Of a stretch of DNA of 64,000 nucleotides, positions 27,547 through 62,396 are shown one piece after another; within the stretch, counting starts at the first letter, position 1, and each line of letters opens with the position of its first letter. The notes beneath the pieces are model-generated. The model ran no database searches. It was given only the letters and a program-made list of their open reading frames with translations, and had not been told where the DNA came from. The stretch lies in the sequence record NC_055781.1. One strand, 5' to 3'. Origin of the DNA: Escherichia phage p000v. The translations under genes were made by a program, and so were the position numbers.

Positions 27547-28006
27547 AAACTATATCAAGGGCGATATTGTCGCCCTGTTTTCTGAAGGTAAAAATGTTGC
27601 TCATGGTTGTAACTGTTTCCATACAATGGGCGCAGGAGTAGCCGGGCAATTAGCGAAGGCCTTTCCAAAGATTTTAGAAGCCGATAAACTTCAAACCGAA
27701 TTCGGAGACGAGTCTAAACTTGGGTCTTATTCGGTTTATGAAAAATATTTTAAGACCCATAAAGCTTATTGCTTTAATCTTTATACACAGTTTGAGCCGG
27801 GACCTAATTTTGAGTACTCTGCTTTAATGAATTGTATAATAGAATTAAATGAATTCGGAAAAAATAAGATAACAAAGCCTGTAATTTATATGCCAAGAAT
27901 TGGTGTAGGTATAGGTGGTGGAAACTGGGATATCATTGAAGAAATTCTTGATACATATTCCACTAAACTAGAAATTGTGATTGTTGATTGGGAACCATTG
28001 CTATGA
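27539..28006 (+). CDS. macrodomain protein (TARG1/OARD1-DarG-like), non-ATG start
   Basis: GDIVALF...VAHGCNCFHTMGAGVAGQLAKAF and MPRIGVGIGGGNW motifs; no in-frame ATG before the GDI strand; GTG 27539 proposed (TTG 27509/27530 alternatives). Confidence 0.65.
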   Translation: MIKNYIKGDIVALFSEGKNVAHGCNCFHTMGAGVAGQLAKAFPKILEADKLQTEFGDESKLGSYSVYEKYFKTHKAYCFNLYTQFEPGPNFEYSALMNCIIELNEFGKNKITKPVIYMPRIGVGIGGGNWDIIEEILDTYSTKLEIVIVDWEPLL

Positions 28007-39752: not shown

Positions 39753-41566
39753 AAATTGAAAAAGAAATTGAAGGATTAATTTATAAAACTAATAAAGATC
39801 TTTTGAACGAGAATGCTAATAAAGATTCTCGTGTTTTTCCAACTCAACGGGACCTTATGGCTGGTATTGTGTCTAAGCACATTGCCAAAAATATGGTCCC
39901 GTCTTTTATTATGAATGCGCATGAAAGTGGAATTATCCACATGCATGATATTGATTATTCTCCTGCTCTTCCGTTTACTAATTGTTGTTTAGTCGATTTA
40001 AAGGGGATGCTTGAGAACGGATTTAAATTAGGCAATGCTCAAATTGAAACGCCTAAATCGATTGGTGTTGCTACTGCAATTATGGCACAAATTACTGCAC
40101 AAGTTGCTTCACATCAGTATGGCGGAACTACATTTGCAAATGTCGATAAAGTTCTTTCTCCTTATGTTAAACGTACATACGCTAAACATGTTGAAGATGC
40201 AGAAAAATGGCAAATCGCTGATGCGTTGAATTATGCTCAATCTAAAACAGAAAAAGACGTATACGATGCATTCCAAGCTTATGAATATGAAGTAAATACT
40301 CTCTTTAGTTCAAACGGACAAACGCCTTTTGTAACAATTACATTTGGTACGGGAACCGATTGGACTGAACGAATGATTCAGAAGGCAATTCTGAAAAATC
40401 GGATTAAAGGTCTTGGTCGTGATGGGATAACTCCTATTTTTCCTAAACTTGTTATGTTTGTTGAAGAAGGTGTTAATCTTTATAAAGATGATCCAAACTA
40501 TGATATTAAACAACTTGCGTTAGAATGTGCAAGCAAAAGAATGTATCCTGACATTATTTCGGTTAAGAATAATAAAGCTATTACCGGTTCTTCAGTTCCT
40601 GTTTCTCCAATGGGTTGCCGTAGTTTCTTGAGCGTATGGAAAGATTCAACTGGAAATGAAATTCTTGACGGTCGTAATAATCTCGGTGTTGTAACACTGA
40701 ATCTTCCTCGCATCGCATTAGATTCTTATATTGGAACACAGTTCAATGAACAGAAATTTGTTGAATTATTCAATGAACGAATGGATTTATGTTTTGAAGC
40801 TTTGATGTGTAGAATTAGTTCCTTAAAAGGAGTTAAAGCGACTGTTGCTCCTATTCTTTACCAAGAAGGTGCATTCGGGGTTCGTCTTAAACCTGATGAC
40901 GATATAATTGAGTTATTTAAAAACGGTAGAAGTTCAGTGTCTTTAGGATACATCGGTATTCATGAATTGAATATTCTTGTTGGTCGTGATATTGGACAAG
41001 AAATTTTAACTAAAATGAATGCTCATCTTAAACAGTGGACTGAAAGAACTGGTTTTGCTTTTAGTTTGTATTCTACTCCTGCTGAAAACCTTTGTTATCG
41101 CTTCTGTAAACTCGATACAGAAAAATATGGAAGTGTAAAAGATGTTACCGATAAAGGCTGGTACACTAACAGTTTCCACGTTTCAGTAGAAGAAAATATT
41201 ACTCCGTTTGAAAAGATTTCTCGTGAAGCGCCATATCATTTCATTGCGACAGGTGGTCACATTTCTTATGTTGAACTTCCAGATATGAAAAACAATTTAA
41301 AGGGACTTGAGGCCGTCTGGGATTATGCTGCACAACATTTAGATTATTTTGGTGTTAATATGCCAGTGGATAAATGTTTTACATGTGGAAGTACCCATGA
41401 AATGACTCCTACTGAAAACGGATTTGTTTGTTCAGTTTGCGGAGAAACTGATCCTAAAAAGATGAACACCATAAGAAGAACATGCGGTTATTTGGGAAAT
41501 CCGAACGAACGCGGATTTAATCTCGGTAAAAATAAAGAAATCATGCATAGGGTTAAACACCAATGA
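39749..41566 (+). CDS. nrdD: anaerobic ribonucleoside-triphosphate reductase NrdD
   Basis: 605 aa; C-terminal glycyl radical motif RRTCGYLGN; uninterrupted ORF. Confidence 0.93.
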   Translation: MKIEKEIEGLIYKTNKDLLNENANKDSRVFPTQRDLMAGIVSKHIAKNMVPSFIMNAHESGIIHMHDIDYSPALPFTNCCLVDLKGMLENGFKLGNAQIETPKSIGVATAIMAQITAQVASHQYGGTTFANVDKVLSPYVKRTYAKHVEDAEKWQIADALNYAQSKTEKDVYDAFQAYEYEVNTLFSSNGQTPFVTITFGTGTDWTERMIQKAILKNRIKGLGRDGITPIFPKLVMFVEEGVNLYKDDPNYDIKQLALECASKRMYPDIISVKNNKAITGSSVPVSPMGCRSFLSVWKDSTGNEILDGRNNLGVVTLNLPRIALDSYIGTQFNEQKFVELFNERMDLCFEALMCRISSLKGVKATVAPILYQEGAFGVRLKPDDDIIELFKNGRSSVSLGYIGIHELNILVGRDIGQEILTKMNAHLKQWTERTGFAFSLYSTPAENLCYRFCKLDTEKYGSVKDVTDKGWYTNSFHVSVEENITPFEKISREAPYHFIATGGHISYVELPDMKNNLKGLEAVWDYAAQHLDYFGVNMPVDKCFTCGSTHEMTPTENGFVCSVCGETDPKKMNTIRRTCGYLGNPNERGFNLGKNKEIMHRVKHQ

Positions 41567-42033
41567 ATTATGATAGATTTTATCCTTGCGATTTTGTGAA
41601 TGGCCCGGGATGCAGGGTCGTTCTTTTCGTTACGGGTTGTTTGCATAAATGCGAAGGGTGTTATAATAAATCAACATGGAATGCTAGAAATGGTATTCCA
41701 TTCACTGGTGAAACACTAGAACAATTAATTGAATGTTTGAATAATGATTATATAGAAGGATTAACTATAACCGGAGGTGACCCTCTCTATCCTGATAACC
41801 GAGATGTTATTCATTGCATTGCTCAAACAGTAAAAAATCTTTATCCCAATAAAAGCATTTGGTTGTGGACAGGATATAAGTTTGAAGATATTAAACAACT
41901 AGAAATGCTTAAATATGTTGATGTTATTATTGATGGGAAGTATGAGAAAAATCTTCCGACTAAAAAGCTGTGGCGAGGATCAGATAATCAGCGACTTTGG
42001 TCAAATACCGATGGGGTGTGGAAACATGATTAA
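41563..42033 (+). CDS. nrdG: anaerobic ribonucleotide reductase activating protein NrdG
   Basis: Radical SAM CxxxCxxC (CLHKCEGCYN); follows nrdD with overlap. Confidence 0.9.
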   Translation: MNYDRFYPCDFVNGPGCRVVLFVTGCLHKCEGCYNKSTWNARNGIPFTGETLEQLIECLNNDYIEGLTITGGDPLYPDNRDVIHCIAQTVKNLYPNKSIWLWTGYKFEDIKQLEMLKYVDVIIDGKYEKNLPTKKLWRGSDNQRLWSNTDGVWKHD

Positions 42034-56395: not shown

Positions 56396-57031
56396 ATGAA
56401 AACTACACCAATCACTATCGCTATTGACGCAATCGTAAAACAAGCTTCATCTCTTGCCACTATGGCTAAAGTAATTAGTCAAAACTCTGCCCGATATAAT
56501 GCTATTCTTGAAACTCTTCGTCGCCCTGGACTGAGTAATTATGAAAGCCGAGTAATTATTACAGGTGTTGGTAAGAACGCTAATATCGCAACTAAAGCTT
56601 CCGAGACTTTTGCTTCACTAGGTATTCCTAGCATGTATTTGAACACCGGGCATTATTCTCATGGCGACGCAGGATTTATTGCACCTAATGATGTATTAGT
56701 TCACATCAGTCGTTCTGGTAAGACTGAAGAAATGATAGGTGTTGCTAAACATCTTCGTATGATTCGTCCTCAGGTTAAACAGATTCTGTTACATTGTAAC
56801 CCTGACATTCCGCAAGAATACGAAGCTCTTTTTGATTATACGTTCTGTACAGGCATCGCGGTAGAGGTTGATGAGAATTCTCTGGCTCCGACCATGTCCA
56901 CTACATTGTTGTTAGCGCTTATCGATACGTTTGCTATCAACCTTTCGTCTGAACGTGGATTTACCTCTAATGACTTCCTTAAGTTCCACCCTGGTGGTGC
57001 ACTAGGTGCCATGTTACGAGGCGAACAATGA
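56396..57031 (+). CDS. SIS-domain sugar-phosphate isomerase (KdsD/GutQ-like, no CBS domains)
   Basis: VIITGVGKNANIATKASETFASLGIPS, HGDAGF, ISRSGKTEE, HPGGALGAM motifs parallel arabinose-5-phosphate isomerase SIS domain. Confidence 0.8.
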   Translation: MKTTPITIAIDAIVKQASSLATMAKVISQNSARYNAILETLRRPGLSNYESRVIITGVGKNANIATKASETFASLGIPSMYLNTGHYSHGDAGFIAPNDVLVHISRSGKTEEMIGVAKHLRMIRPQVKQILLHCNPDIPQEYEALFDYTFCTGIAVEVDENSLAPTMSTTLLLALIDTFAINLSSERGFTSNDFLKFHPGGALGAMLRGEQ

Positions 57032-57212: not shown

Positions 57213-58898
57213 ATGAAAAAAGCTGTTATTCTTGGTGCTGGACTGGCAACTCGTTTGTATCCAATAACGCACCATATTCCTAAGGTGCTTGTTAACTATA
57301 AACAAGACACTATTCTGAGCAATTTGTATACAATTTATTCTGACCTTGGCGCAGATGAAATTATTGTAGTAGTTCATTCAAAATTTGCTGAAACTGTTCG
57401 AGCTTATTGCGAGCAAGAAGGGTTCAATGTGACTATTCGTACAGTTGATGAAGCGTATGGTTCTGCTTATGCTCTTGCTAAATTATACAAAGATTTAGAT
57501 GGCCATAACGTAATTGTTAACTGGTGTGATATTATTCCTGACTTTGGTTCATGGTCTTGGAATGTTAACGCAATCTATGTTAAGGGTGATGAATGTCGAT
57601 ATAATTTCGATGGTGAAAATATCACTAACGTAGGTTCAACAGGTGGTAATGTTGTAGGAATTTATCAGTTCAAAGACTGGGAATTCTACATGGGTTCTAC
57701 TGATGAGGAAATTCACGAATACTGCAAAGGTCGTGATTTCGTAGAATTCCTTTACGGCAGTGCATTCAATAAATCAGAGCTTATGAATCTAATTGATTTA
57801 GGTGATATGCCTAAACTTGAAAAGGCTCATGAAGTTCGTGAACTGAATCGTAGTTTTAATGCAGTTGAAATTGGCGAAGAAACTGTAACTAAATTCGCGT
57901 TAACCGAACAAGGTCGAGCTCTTCAAAAAGATGAGATTTCATGGTATTTGAAAGTGAAATCAGATTCAGTTCCTCAGTTAGTTTCGGTAAATGAAAATAA
58001 TTTTGAAATGGAACGTATTAAAGGTAAGCCGGCATTTGAATATATTAAATCCAAATCAAGTCTTGCTCGTCCACAAATTGTTGATGCAATTTTAGATGCA
58101 CTGAAATTCAGCACGGACACTTATTTTGTAAGTCCTGAAACTGTTCGCCGTGATTTCACTAAAGAGTTCTATACGAAAGTTATTGATCGTTGTGAAAGCA
58201 TTCAGCCATTGATTGATTCATTTGGTAAAATCACACGTGTGAACTACACTAAGATTGGACGTCTGAAGCCAATGTTGAAACAAGCTTTAGAACATCTTAT
58301 TCGTTATCATAACCGTTCTCAGGGACAGTACTCTGTTATTCATGGTGACCCGAACTTCAGTAATACTATGATTACCGATAACGGCGAAGTCAAGTTTATC
58401 GACCCTCGTGGATATTTTGGTGAAACCAAGATTTACGGGCCAAAATTGTATGATGAAGCTAAAGTGCTTTATGCTGTTTCAGGTTATGATGAATTCAATG
58501 CTAATCCGACCTGGGGTCAGTTTACTATTGATGAAACAACTTGTAATGTGACTATTAACATCAATCCATTAGTTTACAAATATGGAAAGATGAGTTCGTT
58601 TAACGAGTATCATCATTTGGCAGTAGCAATTATCTGGATTGCATTAGGTGGTTATTTCAAGAATAATCCACTTAAAGCGGTTGCCGCATATTATAAAGGT
58701 ATGGAACTTCTGACTAAGCAATTACGTAACATGGGCCGTGTACTTCAAGACGGCTCTATTAGTTATGACGTAGCAGAACCTGTAACGGCTACTCTGATTA
58801 CAAAAAATCCTGGTAAATGGGTACTAACTGATAAAGAAACTGGTGTTTCCTATCGTCCAATCGGCGGCGATATCACTCATCAATGGGAACGAATCTAA
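57213..58898 (+). CDS. bifunctional sugar-1-phosphate nucleotidyltransferase / APH-like sugar kinase
   Basis: N-terminal ILGAGLATRLYPIT (RmlA/GalU-type); C-terminal HGDPNFSNTMI...VKFIDPRG (aminoglycoside/choline-kinase fold); 561 aa. Confidence 0.8.
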   Translation: MKKAVILGAGLATRLYPITHHIPKVLVNYKQDTILSNLYTIYSDLGADEIIVVVHSKFAETVRAYCEQEGFNVTIRTVDEAYGSAYALAKLYKDLDGHNVIVNWCDIIPDFGSWSWNVNAIYVKGDECRYNFDGENITNVGSTGGNVVGIYQFKDWEFYMGSTDEEIHEYCKGRDFVEFLYGSAFNKSELMNLIDLGDMPKLEKAHEVRELNRSFNAVEIGEETVTKFALTEQGRALQKDEISWYLKVKSDSVPQLVSVNENNFEMERIKGKPAFEYIKSKSSLARPQIVDAILDALKFSTDTYFVSPETVRRDFTKEFYTKVIDRCESIQPLIDSFGKITRVNYTKIGRLKPMLKQALEHLIRYHNRSQGQYSVIHGDPNFSNTMITDNGEVKFIDPRGYFGETKIYGPKLYDEAKVLYAVSGYDEFNANPTWGQFTIDETTCNVTININPLVYKYGKMSSFNEYHHLAVAIIWIALGGYFKNNPLKAVAAYYKGMELLTKQLRNMGRVLQDGSISYDVAEPVTATLITKNPGKWVLTDKETGVSYRPIGGDITHQWERI

Positions 58899-59284
58899 TG
58901 CACCGTGTAGAAAACATGCTTAATCTTTGTTTTGATGTCGATGATTGTATAACAGAGTGGAATAACAATCGTGATTACGTGAACTTCAAACCAGACGTCG
59001 AAATGGTGTCTGCCATTAATGCCCTGTATGATGCAGGGCATACCATAACGCTTTACACTGCCCGTGGTATGAAGTCGGTAGGTCCTGGTCGTATAGCAAT
59101 TGACATTCTCCCAAGTCTGATTCAGAACTTGGAAAACATTGGTTTGAAGTACCATAATTTGCTAACACATAAACCAGTATATGATTGGATTATCGACGAC
59201 AAAGCTATGCGTCCTGACGAATTCAAAGCTCTTATGAATAAAGGCGAATTCGAAACATTTAAATCATATAAACCAAATCTATAA
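58898..59284 (+). CDS. HAD-superfamily phosphatase-like protein
   Basis: N-terminal FDVDDCIT (DxD motif I) and later K...DD; start taken at ATG overlapping upstream stop (TAATG). Confidence 0.55.
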   Translation: MHRVENMLNLCFDVDDCITEWNNNRDYVNFKPDVEMVSAINALYDAGHTITLYTARGMKSVGPGRIAIDILPSLIQNLENIGLKYHNLLTHKPVYDWIIDDKAMRPDEFKALMNKGEFETFKSYKPNL

Positions 59285-59341: not shown

Positions 59342-60502
59342 ATGAATACTTTTAAAATCGGAACGAATTTTGATTTAGCTCTTCTTGATAAAATCGTAGA
59401 GCTCAATAAAACCTATCCTAATAGCTTGATAAACGAAGTATATGGCTCTACAAGAGAAATGGCTTTTGTAGCAGCCAGACCTGATTTTAGGCTTCCTGAC
59501 GTTGACAAAAAGATGTTAGAAGACTACGTTAAACGTTGTAACGAATTAGGTATTTGCTTTAACTATACACTCAACACGATAAATCCTGGTTCAAAAAGAG
59601 AACTAGTTGAGTGGAAGAAGAAAGCTATTCAGGATTATGTTCAGTATCTTTGGTCAATAGGCGTATGGCGTATTACTATCGCTAACCCTGTTGTTATGGA
59701 AATTGTTCGTGAAGTCAATAAAGATATTGAGATTGAAGTTTCAACAATTCTACATGTCGATGCGGTAACTCAAATCAAATACTTACATGACCAATATAAC
59801 ATCAAAAAGGTCTGTTGCGGAATTCATAAGAACCGTTCAGTTTCTTTCCTGAAGCGTGCAGCAGAGTTTTGCAATAAGAACAATATAATATTTGAAGTTC
59901 TTGTAAATGAGTTCTGTTCTAATGCTGGTAAAGGGTATACAACACATTGTAGTTATCGTGACTCTTGCTATATTTTCCATAGTACTGATGTTACCGCTGA
60001 TGATGCTAAATCCTTAAATGGATATCCTATGCAGCACTGTATTAAAGCTCGTGATACAGACCCATTTAACTGGTTGAGAACTCGTTTTGTTCGTCCTCAA
60101 GATTTGAAACTTTATAATGATATTGGTATCACTCAATTCAAAGTTTCAGGACGTACAGGTAGCACAGACTACATTTTGAAAGTTCTTGAAGCATACGCTT
60201 CTGAAAAGTTTGAAGGTAATTTGTTAGAACTGTGGAAGCCTTTAGAGACTATTTTCACTCTTGAAAATGAGACTGAGTTTTCACATACAGTAAATATTGA
60301 AACCTCTTTGTTAGATGGCTTTTTAGAAAAAAGGTGGTTCAGACATCCAGATTTTGATTGTGCTAATGAAATCTGTGGGTCAACGTGTACATATTGTGAA
60401 AGGTATTATAAACGTCAATTATCTAAAAACGGGTTAGCAGAAAACTCCATATCTATTATTGATATAACTAACTCTGATGACGCTTTGAGGTACCCGGAAT
60501 GA
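59342..60502 (+). CDS. Cys-rich protein, possible peptidase-U32-like Fe-S enzyme
   Basis: EVLVNEFCSNAGKGYTTHCSYRDSCYIF and C-terminal CANEICGSTCTYC clusters; resemblance to U32 signature is partial. Confidence 0.6.
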   Translation: MNTFKIGTNFDLALLDKIVELNKTYPNSLINEVYGSTREMAFVAARPDFRLPDVDKKMLEDYVKRCNELGICFNYTLNTINPGSKRELVEWKKKAIQDYVQYLWSIGVWRITIANPVVMEIVREVNKDIEIEVSTILHVDAVTQIKYLHDQYNIKKVCCGIHKNRSVSFLKRAAEFCNKNNIIFEVLVNEFCSNAGKGYTTHCSYRDSCYIFHSTDVTADDAKSLNGYPMQHCIKARDTDPFNWLRTRFVRPQDLKLYNDIGITQFKVSGRTGSTDYILKVLEAYASEKFEGNLLELWKPLETIFTLENETEFSHTVNIETSLLDGFLEKRWFRHPDFDCANEICGSTCTYCERYYKRQLSKNGLAENSISIIDITNSDDALRYPE

Positions 60503-60780: not shown

Positions 60781-61497
60781 ATGGGAAAACATAACACAAT
60801 GAAATATATCAAAGCCGCAGATTTTCAAACCGCATTTAAAGCAGTCAATCGTGAAATTTTAGAAAACCCGGAATTCGTAACTGATTCTCGTATTGGACGT
60901 TGTAATGAAATTGGGTCTATGACAGTAGTTGTTGACACTCCATCATCATTCAAAATGACCGACCCACGTATTAACCGCATCTCTTATGAATATGCCGAAG
61001 ACTTCTGGAAGTTTATGATTTCTGGTGGTACCAACGCAGAAGAAGCGTTTAAGGCATATCCTAATGTCGCTAAATTTATTTCTAAACCAAAATCAGATGT
61101 TTTGCCGGCGAACTTCAACACTTTCTATGGTCCTCGCATTGCGGCCCAATTACCAACTCTTCTAAAAGAACTTAAAGAGAAGCCTAACTCCCGAAGAGTT
61201 GTGTTCCAAATTCTAGAAAGTTCTGATCAGGCTTTGCTTGATTCGGACGAAACACTTGAATATCCATGTACTGACTCAGTAACTTATTATATTCGTGATG
61301 GTAAGCTTTATACCCACTGTCATATGCGTTCTCAGAACTGTGCTGTTGTTATGCAGTTGGATTTTTATCTCCAAGGAAAATTACTTCATTATATCGCTAA
61401 CGAATGCGGTGTAGAAGTTGGTGATTATACTCATACCATGGTAAGTGCCCATGTGTTTGAACGTGATTTTGATTATGTTAAAGGATTCCTTGACTAA
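60781..61497 (+). CDS. 42: pyrimidine hydroxymethylase, dCMP hydroxymethylase gp42-like (thymidylate synthase fold)
   Basis: YPCTDSVTYYIRDGKL and HMRSQNCAVVMQLDFY align with T4 gp42 catalytic Cys region and Asp specificity residue as recalled. Confidence 0.75.
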   Translation: MGKHNTMKYIKAADFQTAFKAVNREILENPEFVTDSRIGRCNEIGSMTVVVDTPSSFKMTDPRINRISYEYAEDFWKFMISGGTNAEEAFKAYPNVAKFISKPKSDVLPANFNTFYGPRIAAQLPTLLKELKEKPNSRRVVFQILESSDQALLDSDETLEYPCTDSVTYYIRDGKLYTHCHMRSQNCAVVMQLDFYLQGKLLHYIANECGVEVGDYTHTMVSAHVFERDFDYVKGFLD

Positions 61498-62396
61498 TGG
61501 CTATTTTCCGCGTACCAATCTTGAGTATGCGGTCTTATGAAACTGGACAGTATGCTATCCTTAAGGATGGCAACTTCCAACTTCATTTGCACCGTGCTAA
61601 TCCGGGTGATGTGATTACATATCCACGTAATGCATCTGATATTAAAGAATGCGAACGTCTTTTCCCAGAATTTAAGTTTGTTCCATTATGGTATAAAGAT
61701 AACGCGTATAACACTCGTAAATATTTCTGGACTGAAAATGAATTTGTGGTTGATTCATTAATTGATTATTATGATTGTGATTTTCTAATCACAGATATCA
61801 CTGGTTATGGTGGCGCTTTTGATGTGGAATTCAATTTCAATATCACTGCAGACCCTAATAAACCACGTTTTTATATTGATGAATTCTTAAAAACCGACAT
61901 GTTGTCTGTTAATCGTTCACTTCAAACTACTGTGTTGAATGAACGTCAAAAAGAAGTGCTGGTTAACGCAGGTGCAGATGGTAATAAGATTATCGTAACG
62001 CAGAAAGTTATACGTCCTTCCATCATGCAGCGTCTTGTAGGTGATTTGGCTCCTATTCATCTAGATGGTATTTTTCATCCATTTCGAATTAGTGACCCAT
62101 GTTATCGTTTTGAACAAGTGGTTGAATGTGCAATTCAATTAGGTCAACCGCTTTATATAACCGATCCAAATAATAGCTTCGACAGAAATAAGTATCCTGA
62201 AGAAGCGCTGATTCGAATTTTTAAACCAACTAAAACTGAGTACTATCAAATTCTTAAAGGACGTCCGAAAATTCAATATTTCGAAAATCCTGAAGAAGTA
62301 TTCCATCCAGGTCTTGGTGAGTTCATCTACTTTAATGCTTTAATTTCTTCGCCGTATAATATACCTAAATACGAAGATGTCGTAATCGAGGAATAA
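61497..62396 (+). CDS. hypothetical protein in beta-glucosyltransferase position (candidate DNA glycosyltransferase)
   Basis: 299-aa ORF between gp42-like gene and uvsX; no motif recognised; function inferred from synteny only. Confidence 0.6.
   Translation: MAIFRVPILSMRSYETGQYAILKDGNFQLHLHRANPGDVITYPRNASDIKECERLFPEFKFVPLWYKDNAYNTRKYFWTENEFVVDSLIDYYDCDFLITDITGYGGAFDVEFNFNITADPNKPRFYIDEFLKTDMLSVNRSLQTTVLNERQKEVLVNAGADGNKIIVTQKVIRPSIMQRLVGDLAPIHLDGIFHPFRISDPCYRFEQVVECAIQLGQPLYITDPNNSFDRNKYPEEALIRIFKPTKTEYYQILKGRPKIQYFENPEEVFHPGLGEFIYFNALISSPYNIPKYEDVVIEE

Follow-up and report, generated by a model that had tools for sequence, protein, structure and literature searches.

The 64,000-nucleotide stretch of Escherichia phage p000v analysed here (NC_055781.1, hereafter the window) carries, inside a DNA-modification cassette, an open reading frame (ORF) of the peptidase U32 family. 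We propose that this ORF encodes an O2-independent, prephenate-dependent C5 hydroxylase of cytosine acting most likely at the stage of deoxycytidine monophosphate (dCMP), a function that we regard, on balance, as probable. The protein belongs to the U32 family by sequence and by predicted fold, its metal ligands are conserved and its gene is under purifying selection. In relatives, the gene is linked to those of chorismate mutase and 3-deoxy-D-arabino-heptulosonate 7-phosphate (DAHP) synthase, and it also occurs in glycosylation cassettes without a ThyA-type enzyme.

The gene itself is known. The U32 match of RB69ORF050c already stood in a 2006 Pfam listing, the PHROG label of the family reads 'peptidase' only, and many GenBank records call the homologues 'peptidase' or 'collagenase'; an assignment of function was not found in the accessible literature. 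The recent work on phage RB69 (Lee et al., NAR 2026, PMC13326640) gives its homologue gp50 a single table entry, 'Sugar or heterocycle reductase', without further discussion, and brings up the RlhA and TrhP pathways without drawing a link to gp50. An O2-independent, prephenate-dependent cytosine C5 hydroxylase serving phage DNA hypermodification was not in the literature searched.

U32 membership and conserved cysteine sites

Peptidase_U32 (PF01136) is the sole Pfam domain in the 386-residue protein and covers residues 94-286 with 42.2 bits against a gathering cut-off of 22.4 (E = 7.3e-11). An AlphaFold2 model computed from 108 homologues reached a mean predicted local distance difference test (pLDDT) score of 93.7, and its closest structure in a Foldseek search was Mk0906 (PDB 5D88), a U32 triose-phosphate isomerase (TIM) barrel and the only solved U32 structure that was found. 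As modelled, the protein is predicted to adopt the U32 fold. Methylenetetrahydrofolate reductase, a flavin TIM barrel, was the second Foldseek match, aldolases and sugar-phosphate enzymes were among the TIM-barrel matches ranked under 5D88, and a PDB sequence search gave no match at E up to 1. Purifying selection on the ORF is strong (dN 0.12-0.18, dS saturated and dN/dS ≤0.06 against six orthologues), and stop codons are abundant on the strand opposite to it. Its DNA is 100% identical to that of Escherichia phages p000y and PECP20 and 95-99% identical to that of 141 further records; no tandem repeats were seen in the region.

The first-pass annotation, made from the sequence alone, had described a Cys-rich ORF with two cysteine clusters that suggested a metal or Fe-S centre. 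Both peptides are present: EFCSNAGKGYTTHCSYRDSCYIF, which holds C192, C203 and C209, and CANEICGSTCTYC, which holds C340, C345, C349 and C352. Their conservation was followed in a close set of 121 relatives (46-88% identity) and in a distant set of 119 full-length cluster representatives (27-50% identity), the library-wide search having returned 1187 clusters at E up to 1e-3. In agreement with a role as ligands, C192, C203, C209, C233, C340, C345, C349 and C352 are all 100% conserved in the close set. Among the distant relatives, C192, C203 and C233 are kept in 99-100% and the four C-terminal cysteines in 93-95%; at position 209, 61% have Cys and 38% His, an alternation that is typical of a metal ligand. 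C158 (59%) and C177 (15%) fall outside this conserved core. E185 and E190 are conserved in 72-76% of the distant and 90-100% of the close relatives, a KxxGR motif (K267, R271) is 100% conserved, and invariant Arg and Lys residues are numerous. On this pattern we predict two metal sites, C192/C203/C209/C233 and C340/C345/C349/C352, presumably occupied by Fe-S centres, with the first four cysteines as candidate ligands for a [4Fe-4S] site.

A partial resemblance of the first cluster to the U32 signature had also been pointed out, and it agrees with the above-threshold PF01136 match. The strict PROSITE-type pattern, which we take to be E-x-F-x2-G-[SA]-[LIVM]-C-x4-G-x-C-x-[LIVM]-S, is however broken by an insertion of ~11 residues and by several substitutions, the region reading E185-VLVNEF-C192-SNAGKGYTTH-C203-SYRDS-C209-YIFH. 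The essential residues of this motif are E161/C169/C176 in RlhA (PMC5727448) and E162/C170/C177 in TrhP (PMC6599085). RlhA was the best match by hhalign (84% probability, E = 7.8e-6, 203 columns). Both hhalign and MAFFT place C209 on RlhA C176; RlhA C169 aligns to C203 (hhalign) or C192 (MAFFT), and RlhA E161 to E190 or E185. The Glu and two Cys of the motif are retained in either register, as E185 or E190, C192 or C203, and C209. In the MAFFT alignment, C233 falls on the third cluster Cys of UbiU, RlhA and TrhP, and RlhA likewise requires C-terminal cysteines (PMC5727448). Against the four E. coli U32 proteins, the matches of the family hidden Markov model (HMM) were local ones only. Neither DUF3656, present in RlhA, nor the C-terminal domain of TrhP was found in the phage ORF, and the hhalign alignment covers the U32 core only. 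Because these domains are missing, the phage protein is, as judged from its sequence, a separate U32 subfamily and not an orthologue of RlhA, TrhP or UbiU.

The same observations bear on whether the protein could be an RNA hydroxylase like RlhA and TrhP, modifying host or phage tRNA or rRNA (5-hydroxycytidine or 5-hydroxyuridine) and tuning translation in infection. The closest characterised relatives do act on RNA, with RlhA as the best profile match, and T4-like phages encode tRNAs. However, the protein is devoid of both extra domains just mentioned, and its gene is embedded in DNA-modification cassettes of very distant phages, beside a putative base-proximal glycosyltransferase and nucleotide kinases. 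Moreover, among cultured phages it is confined to genera reported or inferred to make 5-hydroxycytosine (5hoC) DNA, so that a role in RNA modification appears very unlikely.

The conserved residues are equally hard to reconcile with a collagenase-type peptidase. Two U32 proteins have been reported as collagenolytic (cited in PMC5727448) and the database labels point that way, but neither a mechanism nor catalytic residues are known for proteolysis by U32 proteins (PMC5727448). What is conserved here are the cysteines of the predicted metal sites and numerous Arg and Lys residues, and the neighbouring genes consistently belong to nucleotide and DNA modification. We consider a peptidase function hardly credible.

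Linkage to chorismate mutase and DAHP synthase, and loci without a ThyA-type hydroxylase

Chorismate mutase makes prephenate, and DAHP synthase is the entry step of aromatic biosynthesis. In seven of the other T4-like lineages, a chorismate mutase gene lies directly 3' of the U32 gene, often overlapping its stop codon. Pfam CM_2 (33-46 bits against a cut-off of 27) confirmed this enzyme in Serratia phage LC53, Enterobacter phage Entb_45, Edwardsiella phage PEi20, Pectobacterium phage PM2, a Providencia phage, Yersinia phage phiR1-RT and Shewanella phage Thanatos-2. The lineages with a Pfam-verified chorismate mutase after U32 are Winklervirus, Kanagawavirus, Mosugukvirus, Gualtarvirus and Tegunavirus, besides Thanatos-2; in Marfavirus F48, the adjacency is taken from coordinates only. 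These proteins keep the AroQ catalytic residues R11, R28, K39, S84 and Q88. By tblastn, the phage chorismate mutase occurs in 51 of 50,697 phage records, many of them confirmed U32 carriers, and stands beside a ThyA homologue in every record listed. Chorismate mutase, DAHP synthase or a fusion of both adjoins U32 in 14 of 16 T4-like loci; Klebsiella phage Potts1 has the U32 gene without chorismate mutase. In Thanatos-2 (L019, 3824-7391; L numbers denote the loci of our collection), U32 and chorismate mutase follow the kinase gene instead of preceding the ThyA homologue, and the two genes have moved as a pair. No SIS isomerase is annotated near that locus. Other candidate users of prephenate, e.g. 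a CmoA-like enzyme, were not found in the T4-like cassettes.

The second line of evidence concerns the ThyA homologue. In the window, the ThyA homologue next to the U32 gene bears L143E, D169N and N177D (E. coli ThyA numbering), the diagnostic substitutions of 5-hydroxy-dCMP (5hodCMP) synthases (PMC13326640). RB69 gp48 is such a synthase; it co-purifies with loosely bound flavin mononucleotide (FMN) and takes its oxygen from 18O2, and RB69 DNA contains mono- and di-arabinosylated 5-hydroxycytosine (PMC13326640). A 5hoC-type ThyA homologue adjoins U32 in all 16 T4-like IMG/VR loci. We compared these with 48 divergent loci (30 from IMG/VR, 6 metagenomic contigs and 12 GTDB genome contigs) whose U32 proteins are 40-56% identical. 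A broad ThyA HMM with filters off detected a 5hoC-type homologue in none of the 48 within the range searched, 10 kb either side of U32. The ThyA-family protein of locus L038 was discarded as a candidate, as it has the canonical W80, L143, D169 and N177 of a thymidylate synthase.

About 25 of the 48 divergent loci nevertheless contain homologues of the first glycosyltransferase (299 amino acids (aa), putative), the arabinose-5-phosphate isomerase and/or the nucleotidyltransferase-kinase, typically in the order glycosyltransferase, isomerase, nucleotidyltransferase-kinase, U32. Others have U32 among genes for dCMP deaminase, thymidylate-kinase-like, dUTPase/MazG-like, uracil-DNA glycosylase and DNA polymerase proteins, and in L020 its neighbours include genes for a TAGT-like glycosyltransferase and a UDP-galactopyranose mutase. 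Such an arrangement follows the T4 pathway, in which the normal deoxynucleoside triphosphate (dNTP) is excluded, the monophosphate is modified and phosphorylated, and the DNA is then glycosylated. In the ThyA-less loci, no candidate other than U32 is left for modification of the base. Of the 48 loci, 16 encode chorismate mutase as a separate protein, DAHP synthase or the two enzymes fused, nearly always beside U32, and the DAHP synthases have the KPRT and metal-binding Cys motifs of type I-beta. Proteins of 248 aa with PF00793, encoded beside U32, were also considered as 3-deoxy-D-manno-octulosonate 8-phosphate (Kdo8P) synthases, i.e. as sugar enzymes, and this was rejected in view of their KPRT motif, metal-binding Cys and homologues fused to chorismate mutase. 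The contigs with these genes come from uncultured phages and from metagenome-assembled genomes (MAGs) that are likely phage, and the genes look like auxiliary ones. The 12 genome contigs belong mostly to Erysipelotrichales, Oscillospiraceae, Romboutsia, Gastranaerophilaceae, Tannerella, Phocaeicola faecalis and Angelakisella, the rest being environmental MAGs; most are lineages that we take to be gut anaerobes. We infer prephenate use and oxygen independence for the phage protein; none of the five rival explanations considered in this text accounts for the chorismate mutase/DAHP synthase linkage together with the ThyA-less cassettes.

Two of these rivals are best judged here. The U32 protein might be a sugar-branch enzyme (a reductase, an epimerase or another step to the activated arabinose donor), since its gene lies directly 3' of the isomerase, nucleotidyltransferase-kinase and phosphatase genes; the published 'Sugar or heterocycle reductase' label, one GenBank record (H43) reading 'putative enzyme involved in UDP-arabinose biosynthesis' and the aldolases and sugar-phosphate enzymes among the structural matches fit this function. 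Yet the route from ribulose-5-phosphate to uridine diphosphate (UDP)-arabinofuranose is complete without U32 (PMC13326640), Acinetobacter phages arabinosylate although they have no U32 gene, and the gene is also absent from the Dhakavirus cassette. Phage loci with U32 beside dCMP deaminase and thymidylate kinase and without sugar genes are likewise at odds with a sugar step, which would moreover leave the chorismate mutase/DAHP synthase linkage unexplained, and we hold it to be quite unlikely.

Alternatively, the protein could be a redox partner of the ThyA-like synthase, e.g. a supplier of reduced flavin, and no hydroxylase itself. RB69 gp48 binds FMN loosely, like two-component flavin monooxygenases (PMC13326640), two redox-type metal centres are predicted in the U32 protein, methylenetetrahydrofolate reductase resembles its model, and in T4-like phages U32 is never found without the synthase. 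However, a partner is hard to imagine in the 48 divergent loci without a 5hoC-type ThyA homologue in range, the synthase is active without U32 in E. coli and in Acinetobacter phages, and the Pfam search found no domain for flavin or NAD(P)H. As the linkage to chorismate mutase is again left aside, such a role seems very improbable indeed.

The p000v cassette and the proposed route

The source phage is a Mosigvirus, i.e. an RB69-like T4-type coliphage, and T4-type replication genes (clamp loader, RegA and gp43 polymerase) lie near the U32 ORF. The first-pass annotation had placed the ORF between sugar-activation genes and a hydroxymethylase and had suggested a role in the modification chemistry. 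The sugar-activation side of this statement stands (Table 1) and the gene context supports the suggestion, but the other neighbour is the 5-hydroxy-dCMP synthase. From its substitutions, the phage DNA should carry arabinosyl-5-hydroxycytosine and not derivatives of 5-hydroxymethylcytosine. This correction strengthens the original idea, because the cassette needs a C5 hydroxylation of cytosine, the very reaction for which RlhA is required in rRNA. Besides, the phage encodes the anaerobic ribonucleotide reductase NrdD and its activase NrdG; it is thus equipped for replication without O2, yet its sole known cytosine hydroxylase depends on O2.

Table 1. Features of the window (first eleven rows) and DAHP synthase genes beside U32 in other loci
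Feature	Position	Strand	Basis or remark
U32-family ORF, homologue of RB69 ORF050c/gp50	59342..60502	+	386 aa, ATG to TGA
Predicted metal site 1, U32 motif region: C192/C203/C209/C233, E185/E190 just upstream	59915..60040	+	Conservation and alignment to RlhA
Predicted metal site 2, C-terminal: C340-x4-C345-x3-C349-x2-C352	60359..60397	+	Conservation
SIS-domain arabinose-5-phosphate isomerase (RB69 gp55 type)	56396..57031	+	Pfam SIS; PMC13326640
Bifunctional sugar-1-phosphate nucleotidyltransferase and sugar kinase (AfhE/RB69 gp52:53 type), 561 aa	57213..58898	+	Pfam NTP_transferase and kinase-like matches; PMC13326640
HAD-type sugar phosphatase (AfhF/RB69 gp51 type)	58883..59284	+	TIGR01689, E = 1.9e-13; PMC13326640
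Small ORF, 79 aa	60499..60738	+	phrog_8601
ThyA homologue, O2-/flavin-dependent 5-hydroxy-dCMP synthase (RB69 gp48 type)	60781..61497	+	Pfam Thymidylat_synt; L143E/D169N/N177D
Putative first arabinosyltransferase (RB69 gp46:47 type), 299 aa	61497..62396	+	phrog_3891; PMC13326640 Table 1
Thymidylate-kinase-like nucleotide kinase (RB69 gp45 type), 182 aa	62398..62946	+	PMC13326640 Table 1
Anaerobic ribonucleotide reductase NrdD, 605 aa, glycyl-radical domain; NrdG, radical-SAM activase, 156 aa	39749-41566; 41563-42033	+; +	
DAHP synthases of type I-beta, in several cases fused to a C-terminal chorismate mutase domain	L048 8411-9433; L051 7302-8357; L061 11079-12197; L075 8931-9959; L006 11145-11891; L036 9384-10130		

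In the mechanism that we propose, the U32 TIM barrel would bind dCMP and prephenate, anionic ligands which the invariant Arg and Lys residues fit. The pyrimidine would undergo a two-electron oxidation via the Fe-S centre(s), and the decarboxylation of prephenate would deliver hydroxide to C5, giving 5hodCMP, phenylpyruvate and CO2; the hydroxide delivery is modelled on the scheme proposed for UbiU/V (PMC10990095). The product would then pass through kinases and polymerase to arabinosyltransferases using UDP-arabinofuranose, the route downstream of 5hodCMP being known (PMC13326640). The U32 protein would act as the anaerobic twin of the adjoining O2-/flavin-dependent synthase, either enzyme feeding 5-hydroxy-dCMP, and all cytosine could be replaced by arabinosyl-5-hydroxycytosine in aerobic and anoxic hosts alike. 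By analogy, such a pairing with an O2-dependent enzyme may mirror TrhP/TrhO and UbiUV/UbiIHF.

The choice of dCMP as substrate, in particular over DNA, could be questioned. A prephenate-dependent hydroxylase might act on another target or stage, i.e. on cytosine already in DNA, on dUMP or on another nucleotide: in megaphage-like loci the U32 gene comes after that of dCMP deaminase, whose product is dUMP, the substrates of RlhA and TrhP are polymers, and the stage of the first glycosylation is left unresolved in the published pathway (PMC13326640). On the other hand, no recognisable nucleic-acid-binding domain was detected with Pfam, and genes for dUTPase/MazG-like and thymidylate-kinase-like proteins accompany U32 in the divergent loci. 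Phages in which cytosine is fully replaced keep dCTP out and must have the modified dNTP ready before they replicate. In addition, only cytosine derivatives have been reported in RB69 DNA (PMC13326640). We consider another target unlikely, and dCMP would remain the best candidate for the hydroxylase.

The distribution of the two genes differs. The 5hodCMP synthase is found in 372 records, including 57 from Acinetobacter and 20 from Rhizobium phages. U32 is found in 220 cultured-phage records, all with at least 80% identity, and the hosts among the records listed are Enterobacterales or Shewanella; the listed U32 carriers (60 records and the ten commonest organism names) include no phage of Acinetobacter or Rhizobium.

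Several observations weigh against the hydroxylase proposal. At the sequence level, the likeness to RlhA, TrhP and UbiU is remote and the register of the first motif Cys is ambiguous between C192 (MAFFT) and C203 (hhalign). The NCBIfam UbiU model NF047963 scores 18.5 bits, far below its equivalog cut-off of 440, and the hhalign matches to TrhP (21% probability) and UbiU (6%) are weak and N-terminal. As of 2024, direct in vitro hydroxylase activity was unreported for any U32 enzyme (PMC10990095), and the substrates of the known U32 hydroxylases are RNA or quinone precursors, not free nucleotides. As for genetics, RB69 gp48 alone yields 5hodC in E. coli (PMC13326640), about 40 Escherichia-phage records have the synthase without U32, and U32 is dispensable for modification as such, given that Dhakavirus VR5 and the Acinetobacter phages are devoid of it; VR5 is also devoid of chorismate mutase. 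The absence of a 5hoC-type ThyA homologue from the divergent loci holds for the 10-kb range only. Finally, a tblastn search of the 64-kb window with seven phage chorismate mutases gave no convincing match, so that the linkage is known from relatives and this phage would rely on the host PheA and TyrA.

The best match of that tblastn search (27808-27975, minus strand, E = 0.002, 30% identity over 56 aa) is to the N-terminal, non-chorismate-mutase part of the 114-aa protein of LC53 and is probably due to chance. The 79-aa ORF after U32 was examined as a degenerate chorismate mutase and discarded, as it has no CM_2 match even at E = 10 and is homologous (E ~1e-11) to the first of two small ORFs in PM2 (57 aa) and phiR1-RT (65 aa), a gene distinct from the genuine chorismate mutase gene that follows it there. 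Its start overlaps the U32 stop (ATGA), but conservation with these ORFs begins at an internal ATG (60550) preceded by GAAGAG, so that the product may be 62 aa long. It contains no cysteines, belongs to the family phrog_8601 only and is found in some of the U32-bearing genera only.

Other features of these loci deserve mention. The ORFs at 57213-58898 and 61497-62396 (plus strand) are each intact here and split in two in the RB69 reference. These splits have been put down to sequencing errors (PMC13326640), which the intact 561-aa and 299-aa ORFs support. A gene for a Seg-type homing endonuclease sits between the HAD phosphatase and U32 genes in LC53 (L010, 5352-5990), PEi20 (L017, 1852-2490) and phiR1-RT (L018, 1852-2490); this insert is not in the window. 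In an 86-kb ENA contig (L002, 7135-17428), U32 belongs to an apparently bacterial-genome island, also present in L003 and in a GTDB Bacillota MAG (L072), with a GP88-like protein, methyltransferases, a 5'-nucleotidase (NT5C), a PnuC-like transporter, a deoxynucleoside kinase and an AlaX-like protein. It further contains a radical-SAM/SPASM enzyme, a second, distant U32-like protein (22% identity) and a nucleoside 2-deoxyribosyltransferase-like protein. This content points to a nucleoside-level pathway. Radical-SAM/SPASM enzymes are encoded a few genes from U32 in two unrelated loci (L001, 1314-2249; L002, 14160-15185) and may be a further pathway partner.

Taken more broadly, the phage-borne U32 subfamily might constitute an O2-independent route to 5-hydroxypyrimidine DNA hypermodification, a generalisation that we advance only tentatively. 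It would be a backup to the ThyA-type synthase in T4-like phages of facultative anaerobes and the sole base hydroxylase in many uncultured phages of anaerobes, with chorismate mutase and DAHP synthase auxiliary genes supplying prephenate, and it would include the first U32 hydroxylase whose substrate (dCMP) is small and soluble. The published arabinosyl-5-hydroxycytosine pathway rests on an O2-requiring hydroxylase, although the hosts of these phages are gut enterobacteria and the phages encode an anaerobic ribonucleotide reductase; formation of the base without oxygen is not addressed in the accessible literature on the pathway. If true, our proposal would explain both complete cytosine replacement across oxygen regimes and the presence of small chorismate mutase and DAHP synthase genes in phages. 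We have not seen the DAHP synthase phage genes described before. The proposal would also imply that many uncultured phages of anaerobes form a large group whose pyrimidine DNA is hydroxylated and glycosylated without a ThyA-type enzyme. DNA modification, and hence resistance to restriction and CRISPR, could then differ between aerobic culture and the anoxic gut, which would matter for phage therapy, as well as between phages with and without the U32 gene. Besides, such an enzyme, small and with a soluble nucleotide as substrate, would lend itself as a model of the U32 family for in vitro reconstitution, and a confirmed hydroxylase would add to the known U32 hydroxylases.

Comparison with known systems

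The characterised U32 enzymes (RlhA, TrhP and UbiU/V) hydroxylate without O2 and need prephenate (PMC10990095, PMC5727448, PMC6599085), in line with the anaerobic hydroxylases that the first-pass annotation had named for this family. Compared with Mk0906, the phage protein shares 11-14% sequence identity, and the 247-residue core of 5D88 has no C-terminal Cys4 module. For UbiU/UbiV, 18O labelling identified prephenate as the oxygen donor (PMC10990095). They are U32 proteins as well, with Fe-S centres, and the third cluster Cys of UbiU aligns with C233. Unlike the proposed phage enzyme, they form a heterodimer, work with an SCP2-like partner (UbiT) and have a lipid as substrate; the phage cassette has no UbiT-like gene.

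RlhA (YdcP) is required for 5-hydroxycytidine at C2501 of E. coli 23S rRNA and depends on prephenate and on Fe-S biogenesis (PMC5727448). Both proteins are U32 members that keep the motif Glu and two Cys as well as further essential cysteines, and the proposed outcome is alike, namely C5 hydroxylation of cytosine. They differ in architecture: RlhA has 653 aa with DUF3656 and binds pre-50S particles, whereas the phage protein has 386 aa, no RNA-binding domain, a motif insertion of ~11 residues and a compact C-terminal Cys4 cluster.

With the synthases RB69 gp48 and DLP3 gp80, the U32 protein would have its product in common (5hodCMP), and it belongs to the same cassette in an adjoining gene. 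Their fold is unrelated to U32, they need flavin and O2 (PMC13326640) and, unlike U32 among the carriers listed, the synthase is also found in phages of aerobes. Finally, the closest precedent for such a couple is the formation of 5-hydroxyuridine at position 34 of tRNA, where TrhP (U32, prephenate-dependent) and TrhO (O2-dependent) give the same product with or without oxygen (PMC6599085). The O2-dependent partner in the phage is a flavin-using ThyA homologue instead of a rhodanese, the target would be a DNA precursor and not tRNA, and the two phage enzymes would presumably be redundant. As in TrhP/TrhO, however, a U32 gene stands beside that of an O2-dependent enzyme, here the 5hodCMP synthase, and the same dual logic may apply to the making of phage DNA.

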